Source: an uncultured Eubacteriales bacterium (GTDB lineage: Bacteria > Acidobacteriota > Aminicenantia > Aminicenantales > Aminicenantaceae). From it: a stretch of 64,000 bases of DNA. Of the stretch, positions 3,324-27,688 are shown piece after piece; the first letter of the stretch is position 1, and every line of letters begins with the position of its first letter. The stretch spans positions 1,658 through 65,657 of the forward strand of contig CAYTTR010000009.1 of NCBI GenBank assembly GCA_964440805.1. Direction: 5' to 3'. The notes below the pieces were generated by a model, which worked only from the letters and a program-made list of their open reading frames with translations, was not told the origin of the DNA and did not search any database. The position numbers and the translations under genes are program-made.

Positions 3324-4214
3324 ATGAAGATCAATAAAATAACTAAACGCATTCACACCTGGATCATCACATTTCTCCTAATGTTTTGCCTCTTGCCTTC
3401 CTTCATGCAAGGACAGATCAGGATAAAATTTTCTACTGGTATTAATTATCTTTCTCTAAATGAAGTCAATCAAACTCTTGTCGACTGGAAAAAAAGCCTG
3501 GAACTCACCACCGCCACGATGCACAATTGGAATTTTACTGGAGGAAAGATAAAGGAACTTCATAAAGCTTTTGAATTTGAGGGAGAATTGTTGGCCGAAG
3601 TCTTACCTTTTCTTTCAGTGGGTCTTGGCTCAGGGTACCTTCATGGAGAATCTGAAGAAAAAGATACCTGGGCAACTTTAGACAGGGTTCGGGGAGATAT
3701 AGTTTTGGGAGAATACATTTATATAAGGCCTACCAAGGCCAGCGGTATTCCTGTAACTTTGAACCTTTATGCTCATCTTCCCTTGACATCAAGGTTAAAA
3801 CTTTTTCTTAAAGGAGGAGGAGGCTATCTCTGGGCTAAATACATTGAGCAGAATGGATTAAAGCTGGTTTCTGATGAACGCTTCAGCTATTCTGAATCTT
3901 ATAATACTTCTGGCAGCAGCCCCTTGGTTCAGGCTGGTTTGGGAATGCGCCTGGAGCTTAAACCAAACTTGAGCTTGGTAGTAGAAGGGCAAATCCGGAA
4001 AGCTAGAGTTAAAGGATTCACTGGTGAGAATAAAGCTGGAGATGAGGGTACTCTCTATTTCATTGAAGAACTCCAAGAAGAATCTGGCTCTTGGTTGGTT
4101 AAACATCTTTTGTCATCCGAGTTTCCAGAAGGAGAAAATATCCGGTCAGTCAAGGATGCTGTGGTTGATTTCAGTGGATTTTCACTTAAACTAGGTTTCA
4201 TAATAAATTTCTAA
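3324..4214 (+). CDS. putative outer-membrane beta-barrel protein (hypothetical)
   Basis: The track ORF 3207..4214 overlaps purL, so the start was moved to the internal ATG at 3324. That start gives a signal peptide (MKINKITKRIHTWIITFLLMFCLLPSFMQGQ). Alternating hydrophobic pattern and C-terminal ...INF aromatic terminus. Confidence 0.45.
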   Translation: MKINKITKRIHTWIITFLLMFCLLPSFMQGQIRIKFSTGINYLSLNEVNQTLVDWKKSLELTTATMHNWNFTGGKIKELHKAFEFEGELLAEVLPFLSVGLGSGYLHGESEEKDTWATLDRVRGDIVLGEYIYIRPTKASGIPVTLNLYAHLPLTSRLKLFLKGGGGYLWAKYIEQNGLKLVSDERFSYSESYNTSGSSPLVQAGLGMRLELKPNLSLVVEGQIRKARVKGFTGENKAGDEGTLYFIEELQEESGSWLVKHLLSSEFPEGENIRSVKDAVVDFSGFSLKLGFIINF

Positions 4215-5329: not shown

Positions 5330-6586
5330 ATGAACGAAGTTGGAAAACAACTGGATTACCTCAAAAAAGGATGTGTGGATATCATTCAGGAAGAAGAATT
5401 CAAGTCAAAAATTGAGAATTCTTTGAAAGAAAAGACACCTTTGCGGATTAAGGCAGGATTTGATCCCACTGCTCCTGATATCCATTTAGGTCATACCGTC
5501 TTGATCCGTAAAATGAAACACTTTCAGGATTTTGGCCATGATGTAATTTTTCTCATTGGTGATTTCACCGGACTAATCGGAGATCCTTCCGGAAGATCTG
5601 CGACAAGGCCGGCTATGACCAGGGAACAAATAAATGAAAACGCCGAAACTTACAAAGAACAGATCTTCAAGATTCTGGATCCAGATAAAACTATAATTGA
5701 TTTCAACTCCCGCTGGCTGGCAAAATTGACAAGCTTTGATATTATCAATCTGTCTGCCAAGTATACAGTTGCCCGGCTTCTGGAAAGGGATGATTTTTCC
5801 AGAAGACTAAAAAACGGCCTTCCCATCTCAGTTCATGAACTTCTTTACCCTTTAATGCAAGCCTATGATTCAGTAGCCCTGAAGGCAGATGTGGAGCTGG
5901 GAGGCACTGACCAGAAATTCAACCTGCTGGTAGGAAGAGAGATTCAAAGGGAATTCGGCCAGGAACCTCAGGTAGTAATGACCATGCCTCTTTTAGAAGG
6001 ACTTAACGGAGTTGAAAAAATGAGCAAGTCACTCCAGAATTATGTGGGAATCACTGAAGCTCCTGAAGAAATGTTCGGTAAATTAATGTCTATTTCCGAT
6101 GAATTAATGTTCCGTTATTACGAACTTCTGACAGACATACCCCTTTCTCAAATAGAACAATTGAAAGCTGATATTCAAAAGGGAAAGGTTAACCCCCGCG
6201 ACCTCAAAACCGGGCTGGCCCGGACTATTGTGGCCGATTTCTGGGGAAAGAAAAAAGCCGAGGAAGCCCGGATGGAATTCGACCGGGTGTTCAAACATAA
6301 AGAGATCCCTTCAGAAGTAAAAGAAATACCGGTCAGCCAACCGGTATACCCTTTGGTGAATCTATTGGTGGAAGAAAAAATCCTGCCTTCCAGGGGAGAA
6401 GCCAAACGGCTGATCCGGCAAGGAGGGATTTACTTAGATGGACAGAGGGTCGATGATATCGACATCAAAATAGAACTTAAGACCAAAAAGGAAACTATTC
6501 TCAGGATTGGAAAAAGAAAATTCTTCAAACTGGTTTTTGGGGACGTTCCCCAAAGGGACACCCCTTTCCCTGAAGAAAAACAATAA
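5330..6586 (+). CDS. tyrS: tyrosine--tRNA ligase TyrS
   Basis: 418 aa; class I HIGH (HLGH) and KMSKS motifs; C-terminal S4 domain; last ~15 codons are encoded by a REP-like repeat. Confidence 0.9.
6539..6570 (+). repeat. REP-like dispersed element copy 1 (GGGGACGTTCCCCAAAGGGACACCCC) inside tyrS 3' end
   Basis: Near-identical 26-mer also at 61738-61771, variant at 29883-29914 and reverse-complement tandem at 29995-30033. Confidence 0.5.
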
Positions 6587-6587
6587 T

Positions 6588-6790
6588 AGAGTCTGTTCAG
6601 TCTATTCAGTTGATTAAATGAAGAGGAGCATGGCGAGCAGGAAGAGTTTATAGCGTTTACTGCGTTTTTTGCGTCAGTAGCATTTATTTACTTTTATCTG
6701 GTTTGTTTAGTTTATCCACTCAATCTGGTTTGTCTGGTATAACTTGGTGAAAGAGGCAAGGCTGGCAAAAAAAATGAGACTAAATAAACA
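6588..6790. repeat. repeat-rich intergenic element, family copy B
   Basis: Contains AATCAACTGAATAGACTGAACAGACT (reverse complement; 24/25 identity to 25336-25360), GCGTTTACTGCGTT, GGTTTGTCTGG and AGGCAAGGCTGGC blocks shared with copies A and C. Confidence 0.4.
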
Positions 6791-8590: not shown

Positions 8591-9457
8591 TTGCCCATTT
8601 TAATTAAATCAGTTAAAAGCAAAAACCCTATTACTTCTTTTTTCCAAATTACCAGCGGGATTATCTTCATCTTTCTAATCATTTTTTTCCTAACAGCCGC
8701 CAGAGTTCCTATCCAAGAAACAACAGTGGAAACATGTTCTGTATGTCATGAGGAAGCAGGACTAAAATTCGCTTCCAATCCCCACTCATCAATTGAAAAC
8801 TGTTCTCTCTGTCACCCTGGGGAAAAAACTCATTTGGAAGAAGGAGGGGGTTCCAATATTTTTGCCTTTAAAGCTGAAGATATACCTAATCAAAAAACTG
8901 AAATATGCCTTCAATGCCACAGTAAAGAAGCGGGCCGATATCAATCAAGTCCTCATGGAAAATCTTCCTATGACTGCCTGACTTGTCACCAGATTCACCA
9001 AGAAAACTCCTTTCCATCGCTTCTAAAATCCGAGGAGACAAAAACATGTTCTTCCTGTCACGGGGAAATCTTGTCCCTTTTTCAGCTTAATGAAAAACAC
9101 CGTCTGCTTGAAGGAATCCTGAGTTGTTCAAGCTGTCACGACCCCCATGGCCCCTCGACCCAGACAATTATGGCCGGATTCAAGCATGAATCATGCCTTA
9201 AATGTCACCGGGATAAAGGAGGTCCATATCTTTACGAACATGGGGCCTCCCGTATAGAAGGGTGCACATCTTGTCACGAAGTTCACGGATCACCCAATCA
9301 GCATCTTTTGATAACCCAAAGTGTGGCTGATCTATGTTTCAGTTGCCATGGGGCTGCTCCTGCCTGGCATTCCCGCTTTGATTCCTATTCTACCAACTGT
9401 ACGGTTTGCCATACGGCAATCCATGGCTCCAATCTCAGTAAGATTTTCTTGAAATAG
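8591..9457 (+). CDS. periplasmic decaheme c-type cytochrome (MtrA/MtoA/OmaB-like)
   Basis: 288 aa; N-terminal hydrophobic anchor or signal sequence; 10 CxxCH motifs (CSVCH, CSLCH, CLQCH, CLTCH, CSSCH x2, CLKCH, CTSCH, CFSCH, CTVCH); first gene of a tightly spaced three-gene cluster. Confidence 0.75.
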   Translation: MPILIKSVKSKNPITSFFQITSGIIFIFLIIFFLTAARVPIQETTVETCSVCHEEAGLKFASNPHSSIENCSLCHPGEKTHLEEGGGSNIFAFKAEDIPNQKTEICLQCHSKEAGRYQSSPHGKSSYDCLTCHQIHQENSFPSLLKSEETKTCSSCHGEILSLFQLNEKHRLLEGILSCSSCHDPHGPSTQTIMAGFKHESCLKCHRDKGGPYLYEHGASRIEGCTSCHEVHGSPNQHLLITQSVADLCFSCHGAAPAWHSRFDSYSTNCTVCHTAIHGSNLSKIFLK

Positions 9458-9467
9458 GAGGAAGAGA

Positions 9468-11330
9468 ATGAAACAAACAAAATATATTCCTCTAATAATG
9501 ATTATCCTCTGGCTGAGCCTGGTTACTCTCGGCTATGCTGAAAACAATGATAAAGATTTCTCCCTGAGCTTCCGCCTTGGATACCGGGCAGTGGATCAAA
9601 GTGGAACCCTCCAAAAATACAAAGAAGATATTAATTTAGAAGATGGAATGAGACTTTTTGATTTTACTTTCAAACTGAGCCCCACAAATGAATTGAGCAA
9701 GCTATTTGACCGCGTGGATATAAATGTCTTTAACTTCGGAGGAGATCCTTTCGAAGCCTTAACCCTGTCTGTCCAAAAATACAGCACTTATCAAGTCCAA
9801 TTCAGCCGGAAAAAATCATCCTATTATTACGCCGACCAACATGAAACAGGAGGAGTCATTTACAATCCTCATACCTTTGATTTCAGGAGAATCACCGACA
9901 GCGGACTCCTCAAGATTTGGCTTCTTCCTTCGGTTAACTTTTATTTGGATTTCAACCGTTATGACAAAAGCGGCGAGAGTATTACTACCCTGGATATTAA
10001 CAGGATAGAATTTGAATTTAACCAGCCGATTCAAGAAAAAAGCAAAGAAATTGCCGTTGGATTGAATGCTCAGCCTTTCAAGGAATTCTCGGTCGTACTT
10101 GAAGAAAGAATACTTGATTATGAGAACTCCAACAGTCTTTTCCTCCCAGGGTATGCTGACGGCGGCGAAGGAGCCAGGTATCCTTCTTCATTGAACTTTT
10201 TCAATCTCAATCAACCATACACCTTGAAAAGTTACAGTCATACCTTGAAAATTTATTCCCAACCAATAAAAAGAATTCTCCTCTCCGGCTCTGCTAAAAT
10301 AACCGACCAGGATCTTGATTTAACCTACCAGGAATCAGCTGATGGAATTAATTACCTGGGAAAATTTTTTGATTATTCTTTTCCGGGAATGGGCAAATTT
10401 CAAAGAAAGATTGGTCTTTATGACCTTGACCTTTCTTTTCTTTTATTTGACCGGCTGGCAATTACCGGCGTAATAAGATACCACGATTTTGAACAAGAAG
10501 GAGAAATGACTGTTTCCGGAGAGAAAAAGACCATGGATTTGAACTATGACACTCTCAGCCTGGAAGGAGGAATTCAGTACCGATTTTCATCTGTCATCGG
10601 TTTGCTTGCCGGTTATCGAAACGAGACCCGCACTCTTGAGGGAGTAGAAACGGTAGATTACGAAGAAAAAACGGTAAGACAGGGATTGTTTGGAAACATA
10701 AAGGTCAGTCCTTCCCGGAAATTTACTCTCAATGCCGATTATCAGTTTGGAACCTATGATCACCCATTTACTCTTGTTTCGCCAGCCGAATTTCACCGCT
10801 TCTCTGCCAAGGCCAGATTAAACCAAAAGCTTGTTTCTTTTTCTGCTTCCTATATTTTCACCAAATCAAAGAACGATATTTGGCAAAACGATTGGTCCTC
10901 CACCAGGCATAACTTTGCCTTTTCAGGAAGCTATAAGGGTAAGAACATTAATGGTTCGGCCAGCTATTCTTATGTTCTGCAAAAACACCAAGGGAACCGA
11001 CAGGTAGACTATCCACCCTCTTTTTCCGGACCAGCAGGAACTTTCCTCTGGGAAATCCTCTATGAAGGAAAATCAAATATCCTTAATGGAAACTTATCCG
11101 CCAAGATGGCCGAAAACTGGAATATAGGAGGATTATTTAATTATTACACTAATAAGGGTTTCTGGGAAATTTCCCGCCTCTGGCTCAAAGGTTACATTGA
11201 ATATCTTTTTGAAGAGGGGTTCTTAGCCCAAATAGGGTATCGGTATGTTGATTTCAAAGAGAAAGACTCAGGATTTAATGATTATTCAGCCAATATTCTG
11301 GAATTATCCTTTGGCTACCGCTGGGAATAA
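9468..11330 (+). CDS. outer-membrane beta-barrel porin-like protein (MtrB/OmbB-like sheath of a porin-cytochrome conduit)
   Basis: 620 aa; signal peptide MKQTKYIPLIMIILWLSLVTLGYA; Y/F/W-rich alternating strands throughout. The 11-nt and 15-nt intergenic gaps, each carrying an SD, couple it to both flanking cytochrome genes. Confidence 0.6.
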   Translation: MKQTKYIPLIMIILWLSLVTLGYAENNDKDFSLSFRLGYRAVDQSGTLQKYKEDINLEDGMRLFDFTFKLSPTNELSKLFDRVDINVFNFGGDPFEALTLSVQKYSTYQVQFSRKKSSYYYADQHETGGVIYNPHTFDFRRITDSGLLKIWLLPSVNFYLDFNRYDKSGESITTLDINRIEFEFNQPIQEKSKEIAVGLNAQPFKEFSVVLEERILDYENSNSLFLPGYADGGEGARYPSSLNFFNLNQPYTLKSYSHTLKIYSQPIKRILLSGSAKITDQDLDLTYQESADGINYLGKFFDYSFPGMGKFQRKIGLYDLDLSFLLFDRLAITGVIRYHDFEQEGEMTVSGEKKTMDLNYDTLSLEGGIQYRFSSVIGLLAGYRNETRTLEGVETVDYEEKTVRQGLFGNIKVSPSRKFTLNADYQFGTYDHPFTLVSPAEFHRFSAKARLNQKLVSFSASYIFTKSKNDIWQNDWSSTRHNFAFSGSYKGKNINGSASYSYVLQKHQGNRQVDYPPSFSGPAGTFLWEILYEGKSNILNGNLSAKMAENWNIGGLFNYYTNKGFWEISRLWLKGYIEYLFEEGFLAQIGYRYVDFKEKDSGFNDYSANILELSFGYRWE

Positions 11331-11345
11331 AAACAGGAGGAGGCT

Positions 11346-13487
11346 ATGAAAAATATACTTAGGATTTTGATGATTACTGTAATATTACCGGGAGCAGTTG
11401 TTTTCATTGCCGGAGCCAAAACGGATAATTTTACCGGACTCCTGTCCCTGGTTTCCCATGCTGAAAAGCTCTGGCAAAGTTCAGGCCATGCCGACTCAAA
11501 AGCAGAAGCCTTTACCCATTGGGATGAGGAAGGTTCTATTCCCACTTCTTGCGCCAAGTGCCACTCCACACCTGGTTTTCAAGATTTTCTGGATAATGGT
11601 GAGGTTAACAGCCCAGCCCCACTGGGCACCACAATAGAATGTGAAGCCTGTCATATAAACAAGGAAACCGGAGCTGTTCGGGAACATACAGCGGTTACTT
11701 TTCCCTCTGGAGCGGTAGTAGAGAACCTGGGACCTGAAGCTCTCTGTATGGAATGCCATCAAGGAAGAGCTTCAAAAAAAGATGTTGACATGACTATCGA
11801 CAGCGCCGGTGTCATTGATCCGGACACCCCTTCTTCTTTGTTAAGGTTTGTCAATATCCACTACTATGCGGCTGCCTCTACCCAGTTGGGAACACTTGTT
11901 GAGGGAGGATATGAATATCAAGGAAAATCATATGATGCCCGGTTTTCTCATTTAACCGGCTATAATGCCTGCATAACTTGTCATAATCCTCATTCTCTTG
12001 AAGTGGAATTGGGTCCTTGCCATACCTGCCATGAAGGAGTGAAAGACCCCAAGGATATCCGTTATTACGGGTCGTTTGTTGATTATGACGGAGACGGTAA
12101 TATCACTGAGGGTATGTTTTACGAAATTGAAGACATTAAAAACATCCTTTATCAGGTAATGCAGAGTTATGCCCGGGAAGTGATTAATATTCCTATTGTT
12201 TACGATTCTCATACTTATCCTTATTTCTTCACCGATGTAAACGGGAATGGAGAGCCTGATCCCGAAGAGTTGAACTACGGAAACCGGTATACTTCTTTTT
12301 CCGCCCGCCTGCTCCGGGCAGCTTATAATTATCAGGTTGCCCAAAAAGATCCCGCGGCTTACGCCCACGGCGGCAAATATATTATCCAGATTCTTTATGA
12401 TTCAATAGAGGATCTTAACCGTCAGCTGGCTTCTCCCCTTTCTTTAAACGTAGCCAGAGTAGATGAAGGTCATTTCGACGGATCATCTGAAGCCTGGAGA
12501 CATTGGGATGAAGACGGCGAAGTTCCAAGTTCATGTTCAAAATGCCATAGTGCCGAAGGCCTTGCCTATTTTCTGGAAAATGGAGATTTGGCTTCCCAGG
12601 AAATTTCCAATGGAATGTTATGTGCCACTTGTCATACAACCCCTCCTCATGTGAGACGAGTCGGTCAAGTGACCTTTCCTTCCGGCGAAGTAGAAGACAT
12701 GGGAGACACTTCCAATCTTTGTCTTCAGTGCCATCAAGGACGGGCTTCAAAATATTCCGTGGAGTCAACTATTGCCTCTTCTCCCGGGCCTTACGGGTTT
12801 ATAAATATCCATTACTTTCCGGCTGCAGCTGTTCTTTTCGGCTCTGAAGTCAAAGGGGGATTTGAGTACGCCGGGAAAATCTACGCCGGCCAGCAAACTT
12901 TCCCCAATCATTTAGGCAAATTCGACACTTGTGTTGAATGTCATATGGGAACAAAAAGTGAAGCCAAGCCTTACGACCATCAAGGGAGACTCCACAATGT
13001 CCAAACACCTAATCCTGAAGATTGTGTCTACTGCCATGGACAGGATATTTCCCAGCCGTATCCGGGCGCAGATCCGGCTAAATTCAGTTTTGAGGGGATC
13101 AGGCCAGCTTCCATTCCCGACTTCGATGGGGATGGAAACCGGAGTGAATCTATTAAAGACGAAATTAAGGGTCTGGAAAAAGAACTATATGCCTGGATAC
13201 AAAAATATGCTTTGGAAAAACTGGGAGCTCCCATTGTTTACGATTCTCACAACTATCCTTATTTCTTCAATGACCTCAATGCCAATGGCAAAGTCGACCC
13301 CGGGGAAAATATTTATCCCAATCAATTTAGGCAATTTAATACCCGGCTTCTCAAAGCAGCCTATAATTTTCAGCTTAGTAAAAAAGAACCCTGCGGATAT
13401 ATTCATAATGCCTGGTATGTGGCTCAGCTCTTGGTGGATTCAATTATCGACTTGGGAGGAGATTCGGCTAAATACTCCTGGCGATAA
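11346..13487 (+). CDS. large decaheme c-type cytochrome with internal tandem duplication (candidate outer-surface MtrC/OmcB-like cytochrome)
   Basis: 713 aa; signal peptide; 10 CxxCH (CAKCH, CEACH, CMECH, CITCH, CHTCH, CSKCH, CATCH, CLQCH, CVECH, CVYCH). The two ~350-aa halves share W(R)HWDE(D/E)G..P.SC.KCHS, VYDSH.YPYFF.D.N.NG..DP.E and RLL(R/K)AAYN(Y/F)Q. Confidence 0.7.
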   Translation: MKNILRILMITVILPGAVVFIAGAKTDNFTGLLSLVSHAEKLWQSSGHADSKAEAFTHWDEEGSIPTSCAKCHSTPGFQDFLDNGEVNSPAPLGTTIECEACHINKETGAVREHTAVTFPSGAVVENLGPEALCMECHQGRASKKDVDMTIDSAGVIDPDTPSSLLRFVNIHYYAAASTQLGTLVEGGYEYQGKSYDARFSHLTGYNACITCHNPHSLEVELGPCHTCHEGVKDPKDIRYYGSFVDYDGDGNITEGMFYEIEDIKNILYQVMQSYAREVINIPIVYDSHTYPYFFTDVNGNGEPDPEELNYGNRYTSFSARLLRAAYNYQVAQKDPAAYAHGGKYIIQILYDSIEDLNRQLASPLSLNVARVDEGHFDGSSEAWRHWDEDGEVPSSCSKCHSAEGLAYFLENGDLASQEISNGMLCATCHTTPPHVRRVGQVTFPSGEVEDMGDTSNLCLQCHQGRASKYSVESTIASSPGPYGFINIHYFPAAAVLFGSEVKGGFEYAGKIYAGQQTFPNHLGKFDTCVECHMGTKSEAKPYDHQGRLHNVQTPNPEDCVYCHGQDISQPYPGADPAKFSFEGIRPASIPDFDGDGNRSESIKDEIKGLEKELYAWIQKYALEKLGAPIVYDSHNYPYFFNDLNANGKVDPGENIYPNQFRQFNTRLLKAAYNFQLSKKEPCGYIHNAWYVAQLLVDSIIDLGGDSAKYSWR

Positions 13488-13502
13488 AGGAAGCATCCTC
13501 AA

Positions 13503-13700
13503 AACCGTGATAACGTGATAAGAGGAAGGGTATGGGATTCGTCCCCCGCTCGATTCCTTAGTGAGGAATCTCGCTCCCATTCGGGCTTCGCTCTCCTCTC
13601 CTCCGGAGAGAAACCATGCCCGCTCTGCCCTCATAGGGGATTCCTCATCCCATACCCTTCCTCTTCTTTAATAATACAATCCCTATCACGGAAATAGGGA
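13503..13700. repeat. GC-rich intergenic element with nested perfect inverted repeats (MITE-like or structured RNA)
   Basis: 19-bp perfect IR AAGAGGAAGGGTATGGGAT (13520-13538) / ATCCCATACCCTTCCTCTT (13647-13665); outer IR CCGTGATA (13505-13512) / TATCACGG (13684-13691); internal hairpin GATTCCTTAGTGAGGAATC. Confidence 0.5.
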
Positions 13701-13792
13701 TGCTTGCGGCAATAAATCTTTTTTGACAAAAGGGGGCTCGAATTTTATTATGGTTCCTCTTTATAAAAAAAATATCTGAAGGAGGAATAGCT

Positions 13793-15157
13793 ATGTTTAT
13801 AGGCAGAGGAAAAAAATCTTTCTTTTTAAGTTTTTTCTTATCATTATTGGTCATTACTCCTCTTCTCTTTTCAATTGAAGAGGTAGCCGGGGTCAAGGAT
13901 ACAAAAAATATCCTGCCTGAAAAAGAGCGGGCCAGAGTCTGGAATGAATGGCTTCGCTGGAGACTTGATAATATAATTCCGGAACTTATGAGGCGGGAAG
14001 GGATTGATATGTGGCTGATTATCAATCGTGAATATAATGAAGATCCGGTCTATCTCAGCCTGATGCCCTGGCCGACTATGGCTGCCCGCCGGACTTCCAT
14101 TTTGATCTTTTTTGACCACGGAGATGAGAAAGGAGTAGAAAGGCTTTCCGGAAGTTACTATGACACTCCTGGGTGGTATAAAACAACCTGGAAAGACAAG
14201 ACAAAAAAACAGTTTGTAAGTCTTGCCGAAACCATCCGGAAACTAAATCCCCGAAAAATCGGCATCAATGTTTCACCTACATTCAGGTTCGGTGACGGAT
14301 TGACTGCCAGTCTGAAAGACAAGCTGATAGAGCACCTGGGGCCGGATCTTTCAAAAAGACTGGTTTCAGCAGAAAATCTGTGTCTCGGCTGGCTGGAAAC
14401 CCGTAGTCCCATGGAAATCAGTGTCTACCGACACATCTGTGGCATCGCTCATGATATCATCGCTGAGTTTTTTTCAAACCAGGTTATCACGCCAGATATC
14501 ACCACCACTGATGATGTCATCTGGTGGATTCGCCAGAGAATTACAGACCTGGGACTGGATACCTGGTTTCAACCATCTATATCAATCCAGCGTTATGCCA
14601 CAGAGGCAGAGAAATATAAAGAGAATCCAAAGGTCATCCGGAGGGGAGATCTTCTTCATTGTGATGTAGGCATCAAGTACTTGGGACTTTGTACCGATAT
14701 GCAATGGCAGGCTTATGTTTGCCGGATTGGAGAAAAGAATGCACCTGAAGGAATAAAACGTGCCTTCGAACGGGCTTTAAAGGTCGGCGAAATCTTTATG
14801 GCCGAGTTTAAAGCCGGCCGGACCGGAAATGAAATCACTGATTCAGCCATGGAAAAAGCTGCTGCTGCCGGTTTACGGCCTTTGATTTATTCACATCCCC
14901 TGGGTTTACACGGTCACGCAGCCGGAACTTCAATGGATGCCCGGCCTGAGGATAGGGCTCCGGAAGGAATTCGCCTGGAAATGGAATATCCTCTTAATTA
15001 CAATACCTGCTACGCCATTGAATTCAGCAGCACCTCCAGCATTCCGGAATGGGATGGACAAGACGTCCGGATAGGTTTCGAAGAAGATGCTGTCTTCACT
15101 GAAAATGGCTGCCGCTATATTGACGGCCGCCAGAAAAAGATTCTTCTAATAAAGTGA
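13793..15157 (+). CDS. secreted M24-family metallopeptidase (Xaa-Pro aminopeptidase/prolidase-like)
   Basis: 454 aa; signal peptide; pita-bread fold metal-ligand motifs (HPLGLHGHAAG, EMEYPL, YAIE). Confidence 0.55.
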   Translation: MFIGRGKKSFFLSFFLSLLVITPLLFSIEEVAGVKDTKNILPEKERARVWNEWLRWRLDNIIPELMRREGIDMWLIINREYNEDPVYLSLMPWPTMAARRTSILIFFDHGDEKGVERLSGSYYDTPGWYKTTWKDKTKKQFVSLAETIRKLNPRKIGINVSPTFRFGDGLTASLKDKLIEHLGPDLSKRLVSAENLCLGWLETRSPMEISVYRHICGIAHDIIAEFFSNQVITPDITTTDDVIWWIRQRITDLGLDTWFQPSISIQRYATEAEKYKENPKVIRRGDLLHCDVGIKYLGLCTDMQWQAYVCRIGEKNAPEGIKRAFERALKVGEIFMAEFKAGRTGNEITDSAMEKAAAAGLRPLIYSHPLGLHGHAAGTSMDARPEDRAPEGIRLEMEYPLNYNTCYAIEFSSTSSIPEWDGQDVRIGFEEDAVFTENGCRYIDGRQKKILLIK

Positions 15158-15177: not shown

Positions 15178-15657
15178 TCAAGTTATTACTTTGTCAATAT
15201 CTTTTTCGCCATAATCGGCAAATTCCTGAGCCAGAGCATATTCGCTTTTCAACATAAGAAAGTGGCTGTGCTCGATCCGGCTGAGATACTCTAAAATAGA
15301 CCTGCTTTTGCCTTCGGTTTTCCGGGAGAATTCTGCATAAAACCTCTCAGCAGCTTCTTCTGCTTTCATTGCCTGGTTTAATATATCTACTAAGGAAGTA
15401 TCGGCCTTTAAGTTTATTGAAGGAATTAAGACATCATCTGCTTTTTCCGGAATATCAAGATTTTCCTGAGGATATAATTTTTCCGTCAGTTTTTCCAATA
15501 TCTGCCTGTGCTTTTCTTCTTCAAAAGCCAGCATCCGGAATTTTTCTTTAAGAAGCGGATTCTGGAGGCGGGATGAAATTTCAGAGTATACTTGGTAGCT
15601 GTCAATTTCTGACCGTATTGCCAGCCCGAGGAGTTCAGGCACATCTTTATCTATCAT
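15178..15657 (-). CDS. ferritin-like diiron-domain protein (rubrerythrin-like, no rubredoxin domain)
   Basis: 159 aa; paired E..H four-helix-bundle motifs (EEEKHRQILEKL, RIEHSHFLML); paralogous to 25398..25865 and 33852..34304. Confidence 0.55.
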   Translation of the reverse strand: MIDKDVPELLGLAIRSEIDSYQVYSEISSRLQNPLLKEKFRMLAFEEEKHRQILEKLTEKLYPQENLDIPEKADDVLIPSINLKADTSLVDILNQAMKAEEAAERFYAEFSRKTEGKSRSILEYLSRIEHSHFLMLKSEYALAQEFADYGEKDIDKVIT

Positions 15658-18945: not shown

Positions 18946-19040
18946 GATTTATTCCTTCTTTATTAAATAAAGGAGTAGTAACTTTTTATTAATTATTATT
19001 CAGATTCCTCCAGAAATCAAATTTCAAATTTTTTTGAATA

Positions 19041-19192
19041 GGAGAACATCAGGTATGCCCAGAGCGACATTGAGGCGTTATTCTTCTCAAGCTACTCTTC
19101 GAGGGAATCCGACTTTGTCGGACGGCGAGGATGCAGTGAGAGAAAGGCGAAAAAGCGCCGAAGTAAAGCAAAGAGCATACCTGATGTTCTCC
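19041..19192. repeat. GC-rich intergenic element bounded by a perfect 18-bp inverted repeat
   Basis: GGAGAACATCAGGTATGC (19041-19058) / GCATACCTGATGTTCTCC (19175-19192) flanking a ~116-bp GC-rich core; same architecture as 13503-13700. Confidence 0.5.
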
Positions 19193-19296
19193 TGTTCAAT
19201 GGATTCAACCACACAAAAAGGAAGAAAACCAAATGTTTTAACAAAATGATATTGAGGCGATAGGTTAAATAAATTCTTTCGGATTAGTCAACATTT

Positions 19297-19339: not shown

Positions 19340-20911
19340 ATGAGAACAAAAAAGAGAGCCAATTCATCCCTCTGGGTTATGCTGATATTCTTTTGTCTTG
19401 CCGGAATATGCTATCTCTTTCCTCAAGAGTCTAACCAAGACTATGAAAAAATAACCAGTGATGATTGCAGCGGATGCCATGAGAAAAGTAAACATGGAAC
19501 AGACTTCACACAAGACCTCTCCCATTCTATCCATGAAGGATTTGAATGCTTAGACTGCCATCTCGATAAGAAAACCTTCCCTCATCAAAAAATACCTGAT
19601 TTCGAATTACCTTGCCATAGCTGCGCTTCCTGTCATGAAGAAGAAGCCCAAACATATAAAATTCACGGATGAGCTTTGGTAGCCGAATGTCAAGATGCGC
19701 CGTCTTGTGCAGGCTGTCACGGTGAGCTGGTAAGCCGAGGTCAGACAGATGCTCCGGTATGCACTGACTGCCATGGAGAACACGGCATCTTTTCTCCTAA
19801 TGATCCCCGCTCACCAGTTTCCAGCATCAGATTGGCTGAAGCCACCTGTGCCCCCTGTCATGAATCCGTCAGGCTCTCGGAAAAGTACGGCCTTCCCCTG
19901 GGGCGTTTGGCCTCATTTATAGACAGTTACCACGGCCTGAAAACAAAAGCCGGAGATCAATATGTGGCCAATTGTGCTTCCTGCCACGGAGTTCATAAAA
20001 TACTGCCCAGTTCTGATCCGGAGTCCACAATCCATCCCGCTAATCTTCAAAAAACTTGCGGCGAGTGTCATTCCGGGATTTCTGCTGAATTGGCCCAATC
20101 CCCCATTCACGGCCTGGGAGGTGAAGGCCTCCAGACCAAAGCTGCCAGCATTGTTCAGAATATCTATATTGCCGCCATTATTATTATTATCGGACTAATG
20201 GGCATCCATTGGCTTATCGACCTTATCAGGCAGATAATTTTGGTTGCCCGAAAAAAACCTCAGGTCAGGCGGATGAATGCCAATGAACTCTGGCAACATA
20301 CCCTTCTCATGCTCAGTTTTATTGTCCTGGTTGTCACCGGCTTCTCTCTCAGGTTTGATCAGGCCTGGATTACACGGTTTTTCTTCGGCTGGGAAGGCGG
20401 TTTTAAACTGAGAGGAACCATCCACAGAGTGGCTTCGGTTGTTCTCATCGTGACTACTATATGGCACGTTATTTACCTTTTCTCCAGGAGAGGCCGGAGA
20501 TTTTTTGTCGATATGTGGCCCCGCTTAGGTGATTTCCGCGACTTTATTCAGAAAATCTTGTTTAATCTGGGACTTTCCAAAAAAGAACCCCGGTTCGGGA
20601 GATTCAGTTATATCGAGAAAGCTGAGTATTGGGCTCTTATCTGGGGAAATGCAGTGATGATAGTAACCGGAATACTTCTTTGGTTTGACAATTATTTTGT
20701 CAGAATTTTCCCCAAAGGAGTGCTTGATGTTTCTTTGGTCATTCATTATTACGAAGCCATTCTGGCTTCTCTTGCCATTTTAATCTGGCATCTGTACTCT
20801 ACCGTCTTTAATCCCCGCGTCTATCCCATGAATCCTTCATGGCTTACCGGCAAAATGCCGGAAGACATGTTTATTCACGAACACCAAGCAGTCAAAAAAG
20901 AAGAGATTTAA
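19340..20911 (+). CDS. inner-membrane multiheme cytochrome c fused to diheme cytochrome b (Cbc/CbcL-like quinol oxidoreductase), interrupted by one in-frame TGA at 19670-19672
   Basis: Track ORFs 19340..19672 and 19676..20911 are in the same frame, separated by TGA plus one codon. Only the first ORF has a signal peptide. There are 3+5 CxxCH motifs, then five His-bearing TM helices of PF01292 type (HydC/FdnI-like). Confidence 0.6.
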
Positions 20912-27433: not shown

Positions 27434-27688
27434 TTATTCTTTGACTTTCTTGATATAGATCTTGTAGACTCCATTCTTTTCTTCCATTTTCAAGCATCCC
27501 TGTCCTGTCTGTCTGCACCAGGCCGGGATATCTTCTTTGATTCCTTTATCAGTGGCTATGATTTCCAGTATTTCGCCCACTTTTAATTTCTTGATTATCT
27601 CGGATGTTTTAATAACCGGCATAGGACAGAGTAATCCAAAACAATCTAATGTGTGATCAGCTTTAATGGTCATTAACCAGGTTTCCAA
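27434..27688 (-). CDS. TusA/SirA-family sulfur-carrier protein
   Basis: 84 aa with the CPMP active-site motif (LDCFGLLCPMPVIKT). Confidence 0.7.
   Translation of the reverse strand: METWLMTIKADHTLDCFGLLCPMPVIKTSEIIKKLKVGEILEIIATDKGIKEDIPAWCRQTGQGCLKMEEKNGVYKIYIKKVKE

Follow-up and report, generated by a model that had tools for sequence, protein, structure and literature searches.

The 64-kb window, by which we mean the whole stretch of DNA that was analysed, contains a three-gene cytochrome cluster that ends with a gene for a 713-aa multihaem protein and is followed by a gene for an M24 peptidase. The non-coding element described here is located between the two, and its features and those of its neighbours are collected in Table 1. 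Just past the element there is a promoter-like site of the M24 gene that agrees with 11 of 12 consensus positions and is conserved in a syntenic relative (L008). The position of the middle ORF in the cytochrome cluster suggests that its product might be a partner of the cytochromes, such as the porin of a porin-cytochrome conduit. The same order, with this ORF between two multihaem genes, is also found in other Aminicenantes (L015-L018).

Table 1. Positions of the element, its internal repeats and the neighbouring features in the window.
Feature	Position	Strand	Description
Multihaem protein gene	8591-9457		first of three-gene cytochrome cluster
ORF	9468-11330		620 aa; no Pfam match; middle of cytochrome cluster
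Cytochrome ORF	11346-13487	+	713-aa multihaem protein; final gene of the cluster
Left target duplication	13480-13488		GGCGATAAA; adjoins end of homology with L002 and L008
Whole element	13489-13707	+	219 bp, non-coding, MITE-like; ends set where similarity with L002, L008 and L012 stops
Left terminal repeat	13490-13511	+	AAGCATCC - 6 nt - CCGTGAT; matches outer repeat 13491-13512
Tandem duplication	13506-13521	+	CGTGATAA CGTGATAA; adjoins core
Left 19-bp arm	13520-13538	+	closes GC-rich core; identical in L001 and L002
Core interior	13539-13646	+	108 nt, 60.2% GC; blocks TCGCTCCCATTCGGGCTTCGCTCTCCTCT and GAACCATGCCCGCTC.GCCCTCATAGGGGAT kept in all copies
Inner hairpin	13552-13570	+	GATTCCTTAGTGAGGAATC = GATTCCT-TAGTG-AGGAATC; place of extra 141-nt hairpin block in L002
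Right 19-bp arm	13647-13665	+	perfect inverted repeat
Small hairpin	13679-13701		ATCCCTAT-CACGGAA-ATAGGGAT; right outer arm; overlaps right terminal repeat
Right terminal repeat	13685-13706	-	read on - strand: AAGCATCC - 6 nt - CCGTGAT
Right target duplication	13708-13716		GGCAATAAA; 8/9 identical to left copy
M24 promoter-like site	13723-13751		just past element; conserved in L008
M24 peptidase ORF	13793-15157	+	downstream of element

A preliminary description of this DNA had placed a GC-rich island, bounded by a perfect 19-bp inverted repeat, at 13503-13700. The element is there, but comparison with the other copies described below shows that the true unit is wider. Its core (13520-13665) is closed by the perfect repeat, AAGAGGAAGGGTATGGGAT and its complement, with 108 nt between the arms, and has a GC content of 56.8%, as compared to 42.1% in the window, 41.5% in the upstream flank and 32% in the downstream flank; such a value is attained by 0.07% of all 146-nt windows. 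The 19-mer is found in the window at the two arms alone when up to three mismatches are allowed, and none of 100 shuffled sequences contained two or more matches. The perfect repeat is thus present as described but does not bound the element, since the ends are located 31 and 42 nt further out. The second, outer repeat in the preliminary description (CCGTGATA / TATCACGG) is real and belongs to a 22-nt repeat (13491-13512 / 13684-13705) with 77% complementarity, and the internal palindrome was recovered as the inner hairpin of the core. The CGTGATAA motif that is tandemly duplicated next to the core is single in L002 and L008, and L012 carries two CGTGAT-like motifs 14 nt apart.

Folding of the region is much more stable than that of shuffled sequences: the RNA fold of the + strand was estimated to -97.1 kcal/mol (z = -7.6 relative to shuffled sequences), and the folds of the - strand RNA and of the DNA yielded z = -5.9 and z = -7.3, respectively. 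The small hairpin in the right outer arm scored as terminator-like on the - strand only. One frame is open across most of the element, and a search with the six concatenated frames retrieved no homologues among 5.8 billion proteins. Past the TAA of the cytochrome gene, its frame contains no further stop for 69 codons, across the element (13488-13697); the peptide has no homologue and the open frame is probably a coincidence. Using permissive settings, the best overlapping Rfam matches to the window copy scored 12-14 bits against gathering scores of 50, the L002 copy gave no match, and the whole window yielded one tRNA only at the gathering threshold. A Y RNA or YrlA, to which the nearby RtcB and archease had pointed, was rejected since there was no Rfam match and the other copies are not near RtcB.

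For the identification of related copies, a one-genome-per-species collection was scanned with the 19-mer arm, and further loci were fetched as the genomic contexts of M24 peptidase homologues; later copies were obtained with nhmmer from the fetched loci. The M24 homologues assign the window to Candidatus Aminicenantes, while no record was found of the M24 and cytochrome proteins of the window themselves. The 19-mer scan yielded two loci, both in 'Bacterium isolate GSL_GB14_3' (L001 and L002). The L002 copy (3337-3689) is located between a helicase gene and uvrA, which diverge, and represents the whole unit including the outer repeat, with 141 extra nt within the inner hairpin. The L001 copy is located downstream of a gene for an S9 peptidase, from about 6535 to 6724 or beyond, and is 92% identical in the core, while the core of a copy in L012 (GCA_048622315.1, 3178 to ~3407), between divergent genes for sigma-70 and trehalose synthase, is 79% identical. 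A right-half copy is present at the same sigma-70/trehalose synthase site in L019. The syntenic loci L011, L013 and L014 contain ~50-60 nt where L012 has ~250 nt and are without the element; these loci are too diverged from L012 for an exact empty junction. Finally, L008, L009 and L010 represent a syntenic relative (M24 91% identical) in which the element is located at the same site as in the window, spanning 9707-9917 in L008.

There are thus four independent insertion sites (window/L008, L002, L001 and L012/L019) in at least four assemblies, and the nhmmer matches across loci have E-values as low as 1e-69, with 1e-41 to 1e-63 for the homologous copies at four other loci. The other copies are 211-353 bp in size versus 219 bp for the window copy. 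Their neighbours are unrelated between sites, namely cytochrome and M24 genes, helicase and uvrA, S9 peptidase, and sigma-70 and trehalose synthase, and the orientation varies: the window copy is in sense to its neighbours, that in L001 is antisense, and the genes on either side of the L002 and L012 copies diverge. The preliminary description had allowed for a merely fortuitous palindrome, without other copies or conservation in relatives; we found related copies at unrelated loci in other Aminicenantes assemblies and an insertion common to L008. A chance palindrome that belongs to no repeat family would be consistent with the lack of a second copy within the 64-kb window (BLASTN, and nhmmer with single sequences and profiles), but it is excluded by the homologous copies at the four other loci and by the shuffled sequences. 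Five matches to the 19-mer in metagenomes were all chance matches to a single arm in unrelated sequence, and a scan of viral contigs with a conserved interior 20-mer gave no match. Cytochrome homologues were uninformative as a source of empty sites, the nearest being no more than 70% identical and having different genomic surroundings.

The core of the L001 copy (6535-6790) is inverted relative to the outer arm, and the sequence past the other arm is unlike that of any other copy. Its interior matches the window on the same strand (97/108) while the outer arm matches the reverse complement of the right arm in the window (33/42), an arrangement that is taken from these alignments to be an inversion across the 19-bp repeat. 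The 141-nt block in L002 (3409-3549) contains four strong hairpins, for example CCAAAGGGG-CATA-CCCCTTTGG and ACTGATTTGTGAA-GG-TTCACAAATCAGT. Part of the block resembles the element interior (TCTCGGGCTTGCG versus TTCGGGCTTCGC), and no second copy of it was found among the sequences compared. Just after the gene for trehalose synthase in L020 (3624-3656; also L022, 728-760) there is a fragment without arms that matches two conserved interior blocks (CTCGCTCCC ... GAGGAACCATGCCCGCTC) and that is probably a decayed remnant of the element.

The terminal inverted repeat consists of 22 nt in two parts, AAGCATCC-N6-CCGTGAT, and the window and L002 copies carry the motif at either end; L008 has it on the right and L012 on the left. 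One further match to the terminal motif, at 27491, is located inside a small coding region and was attributed to chance. A check for target-site duplications, as suggested in the preliminary description, identified 9-bp direct repeats that abut the terminal repeats in both copies with intact ends, and the target sequences differ. In L002 the duplication is perfect, with GAGTGAAGA on both sides (3328-3336 and 3690-3698), while the two copies in the window differ at one position (Table 1). The chance of a 9/9 match at a fixed position is ~4e-6 by our own arithmetic. Different 9-bp targets that abut the terminal repeats are the kind of trace expected from transposition with a staggered cut.

The L008 copy is flanked by GGCAATAAA on the left and ATAATAAA on the right. 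Since the left copy in L008 is identical to the right copy in the window, the G in the left copy of the window represents a later substitution. The simplest history would be a single insertion into GGCAATAAA before the two lineages separated, after which an A was replaced by G in the left copy of the window. Independent insertions in the two lineages were rejected, since the two copies share their position, orientation and target, and one later substitution accounts for the imperfect duplication. The candidate duplications are less clear for L012 (6/9) and L001 (6-8/9), in which the far ends have diverged and, for L001, the end itself is uncertain. Two candidates were noted in L001, TGTTATGTT (6/9) and ATTATATTT (8/9), the latter 35 nt further out.

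We conclude, with a probability of roughly 0.8, that 13489-13707 is a MITE-like non-autonomous DNA transposon, one of a family whose members are dispersed over the genomes of Candidatus Aminicenantes. This reading is based on the small size and lack of genes, the terminal repeats, the differing 9-bp duplications, the dispersed copies, their presence or absence at given sites, and the occurrence of truncated and length-variant copies, among them a truncated copy in L019, the 141-nt internal insertion in L002 and a decayed orthologue in L008. Features of this kind are listed for prokaryotic MITEs in a review (PMC10969869). Counted against it are the GC-rich core, the small number of known sites (four), the diverged far ends and imperfect duplications of L001 and L012, the subterminal location of the 19-bp repeat, since a perfect repeat inside the ends is not required by a simple MITE model, and a degree of conservation in the window copy that is much higher than expected for a dead insertion under neutrality. 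A nested arrangement, with the core bounded by the 19-bp repeat inserted into an older outer element, was not supported because the core is not flanked by a duplication in any of the copies. The annotation of 13489-13707 should lose its short ORFs, and the segment should be marked as a repeat or mobile element.

A different route of mobility would be that of a hairpin repeat that moves in single-stranded form, with a Y1 (HUH) transposase recognising the 19-bp hairpin rather than the outer repeat, as in REPIN or REP doublets with RAYT, or in IS200/IS605-derived palindromes. The element resembles these in being a dispersed, intergenic, GC-rich and stable hairpin in AT-rich DNA with a perfect repeat that is internal rather than terminal, and the DNA fold (z = -7.3), the core in both orientations relative to the outer arm and the string of extra hairpins in L002 would all be accommodated. 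However, IS200/IS605 and REP/RAYT elements are not known to duplicate their target or to have terminal inverted repeats, whereas 9-bp duplications abut the 22-nt terminal repeat at two independent insertions, and no Y1 transposase gene was seen near any copy. We consider such an origin very improbable. An integron attC site was also rejected. Such sites are imperfect palindromes that follow a cassette ORF in a cassette array and carry R''/R' core sites (RYYYAAC ... GTTRRRY), while the ends of the element (GGAAGCATC ... GATGCTTGC) lack the GTTRRRY core and the neighbours are housekeeping genes rather than cassettes.

According to the MITE interpretation, the 9-bp target GGCAATAAA, in which the last cytochrome gene has its stop codon, received the insertion and was duplicated on both sides before the lineages of the window and L008 split. 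Since the left 9-bp repeat contains the stop codon TAA (13485-13487), the insertion left the protein unaltered. A DDE-type transposase encoded elsewhere would have recognised the terminal repeats and cut with a 9-bp stagger, as suggested by the duplications. Mobilisation would have occurred in trans; a search of the 64-kb window and ~235 kb of fetched loci revealed neither a transposase nor a complete insertion sequence with such ends. Transcription of the cytochrome operon probably extends into the element and would place it at the 3' end of the mRNA, where a very stable hairpin could block 3' exonucleases or read-through into the M24 gene, which keeps its own promoter-like site.

The copies in the window and L008 have decayed at very different rates. 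When changes were polarised with L001 and L002, 32 were specific to L008 and 4 to the window (binomial p = 2e-6), and with L012 alone as the reference there were 22 L008-specific and 5 window-specific changes (binomial p = 1.5e-3). Seven of the changes in L008 affect the arms and none of these is compensated. A faster clock in L008 overall was ruled out by a relative-rate test on the adjacent M24 gene, for which we counted 7 window-specific and 6 L008-specific changes in the protein, and 32 window-specific and 15 L008-specific changes at third codon positions. The drift of the L008 copy is close to the local neutral rate, while the window copy has hardly changed. The two genomes differ at 50% of four-fold sites.

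The region upstream of the element also differs: the cytochrome cluster of the window (8591-13487) corresponds in L008 (8231-9705) to three remnants of 74-88% identity in which only short ORFs are left, and ~3.2 kb is missing. Around the element, from 13342 to 14240, the identity to L008 outside the element is ~83-93% per 60 nt, as compared to 70-85% deeper in the M24 gene. Differences at third positions amount to 23% in the first 300 nt of M24 versus 42% in the remainder, and to ~19% in the tail of the cytochrome gene. The higher identity of this segment may be due to a tract that recombined more recently, or to constraint on the 5' part of M24.

The asymmetry suggests that the window copy has been maintained either by selection, for example on a hairpin at the 3' end of the mRNA, or by gene conversion. 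If the family is still alive in the window genome, conversion from other copies there would explain the asymmetry equally well. The preliminary description had offered a structured RNA as its second reading. The element would then primarily be a small RNA gene, an attenuator, or a terminator or stabiliser in a 3' UTR; its closing stem and interior would be maintained by selection, and transposition would account at most for its spread. In a weaker form it would be a MITE whose hairpin has been exapted. Several observations are in line with this: the very stable fold of the transcribed strand (z = -7.6), the interior blocks that are kept even in the 79% identical L012 copy, the 4 versus 32 changes since the split without such a bias in M24, the reduction of the operon to remnants in L008, which would fit a function that was linked to this operon and has been lost, and the absence of a canonical intrinsic terminator on the + strand after the cytochrome operon.

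The consensus fold of five copies provides evidence on both sides. Of its 41 pairs, 3 have changed on both sides, a count to be read in the light of the few sequences. The three pairs belong to the closing 19-bp stem and owe their changes to L012, in which the arms are GAGGGGAAGGGCAAGG and, as the reverse complement of the right arm, GAGGGGAAAGGGCAAGG, versus AAGAGGAAGGGTATGG in the window. Such changes fit a hairpin, but binding of both arms by one protein would lead to them just as well, so that they do not separate the two readings. The interior helices contain no compensatory change and several of their pairs are broken. Together with the lack of Rfam matches, the seven uncompensated arm changes in L008, the occurrence in both orientations next to unrelated genes, the inversion of the core relative to the outer arm in L001, and a closing stem of 146 nt that is unlike that of known intrinsic terminators, this argues against a structured RNA, which we consider improbable as a whole. 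The first of the two readings offered is upheld by the copies, the 9-bp duplications and the presence/absence pattern, while a structured RNA as the primary identity is unlikely and a secondary, exapted role for a MITE hairpin is doubtful, if somewhat less so.

In its most specific form, which we regard as a tentative possibility on the basis of these comparisons, the window copy would have been domesticated, with selection on its hairpin as a terminator or exonuclease block at the 3' end of the multihaem cytochrome operon. That operon would be of the extracellular-electron-transfer type. The window copy would for this reason have kept its GC-rich sequence and perfect 19-bp stem nearly intact, and the L008 copy, behind a deleted operon, would have decayed at close to the neutral rate.

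Among known elements, the closest in layout, as compared by its description, is QMITE2 from Coxiella burnetii, a prokaryotic MITE in which a core of 113-145 bp is enclosed by terminal repeats of 23-29 bp and by 7-9 bp direct repeats, and the transcript of which has a very stable fold (PMC10969869). Likewise, the element is <500 bp in size, gene-less and intergenic, with 22-nt terminal repeats, 9-bp direct repeats, a core of ~110-146 nt, truncated and length-variant copies and one long hairpin predicted for the transcript. It differs from QMITE2 in that the host belongs to another phylum (Aminicenantes/Acidobacteriota) and in the extra perfect 19-bp inverted repeat located 31-42 nt inside the ends. 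The GC-rich core, in a 42% GC genome, also sets it apart from prokaryotic MITEs in general, most of which are AT-rich (PMC10969869).

Neither Correia elements of Neisseria nor ERIC sequences of enterobacteria have any sequence relationship to the element, and Correia elements duplicate TA rather than 9 bp. Both are MITEs that are co-transcribed with neighbouring genes and form hairpins that affect the processing or stability of the mRNA; RNase III cleaves at the terminal repeats of Correia elements, and ERIC insertions at the 3' end affect the transcript level (PMC10969869). The element, which directly follows a stop codon and would place a long hairpin in the 3' UTR of an operon, resembles them in this respect if the inference of co-transcription holds. 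The asymmetric conservation gives no more than a hint that the cytochrome operon is affected.

The window also contains another MITE-like element (19024-19231, ~208 bp) that is unrelated to the first but built in the same way, which counts in favour of the MITE reading. It is flanked by the genes for NAPRTase and for a cytochrome b/multihaem protein and has 25-nt arms (19034-19058 / 19175-19199) that are 96% complementary. For this element L008 provides a clean empty site at ~15503-15511, in which the target AG(A/G)AAATCAAAT is present once, while the window contains the target on both sides (AGAAATCAAAT / AGAAAACCAAAT). A relative with arms changed on both sides is located in L020 (3745-3935). 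The adjacent cytochrome b/multihaem gene is a single ORF of 647 aa in L008 (15602-17545), whereas the gene in the window (19341-20911) contains a stop at 19671-19673 and lacks ~340 bp relative to L008; in the genome of the window it has probably turned into a pseudogene or been shortened.

A full-text search of the literature for Aminicenantes and MITEs retrieved no paper. The family thus appears to be undescribed, although the kind of element is well known, and how MITEs are understood to work is unchanged by it. It would represent the first MITE-like family described in the uncultured phylum Aminicenantes, with the element at 19024-19231 as the second, and elements of such kind also break metagenome assemblies. 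The element marks a locus at which one lineage has a multihaem cytochrome operon that a close relative has lost by deletion, and the unequal decay of the orthologous copies provides a small natural test of selection on a hairpin in a 3' UTR. The asymmetric conservation tied to the loss of the cytochrome operon is the only part that may go beyond the routine: if domestication were true, Aminicenantes would carry families of transposon-borne RNA hairpins that have been recruited as the ends of operons.
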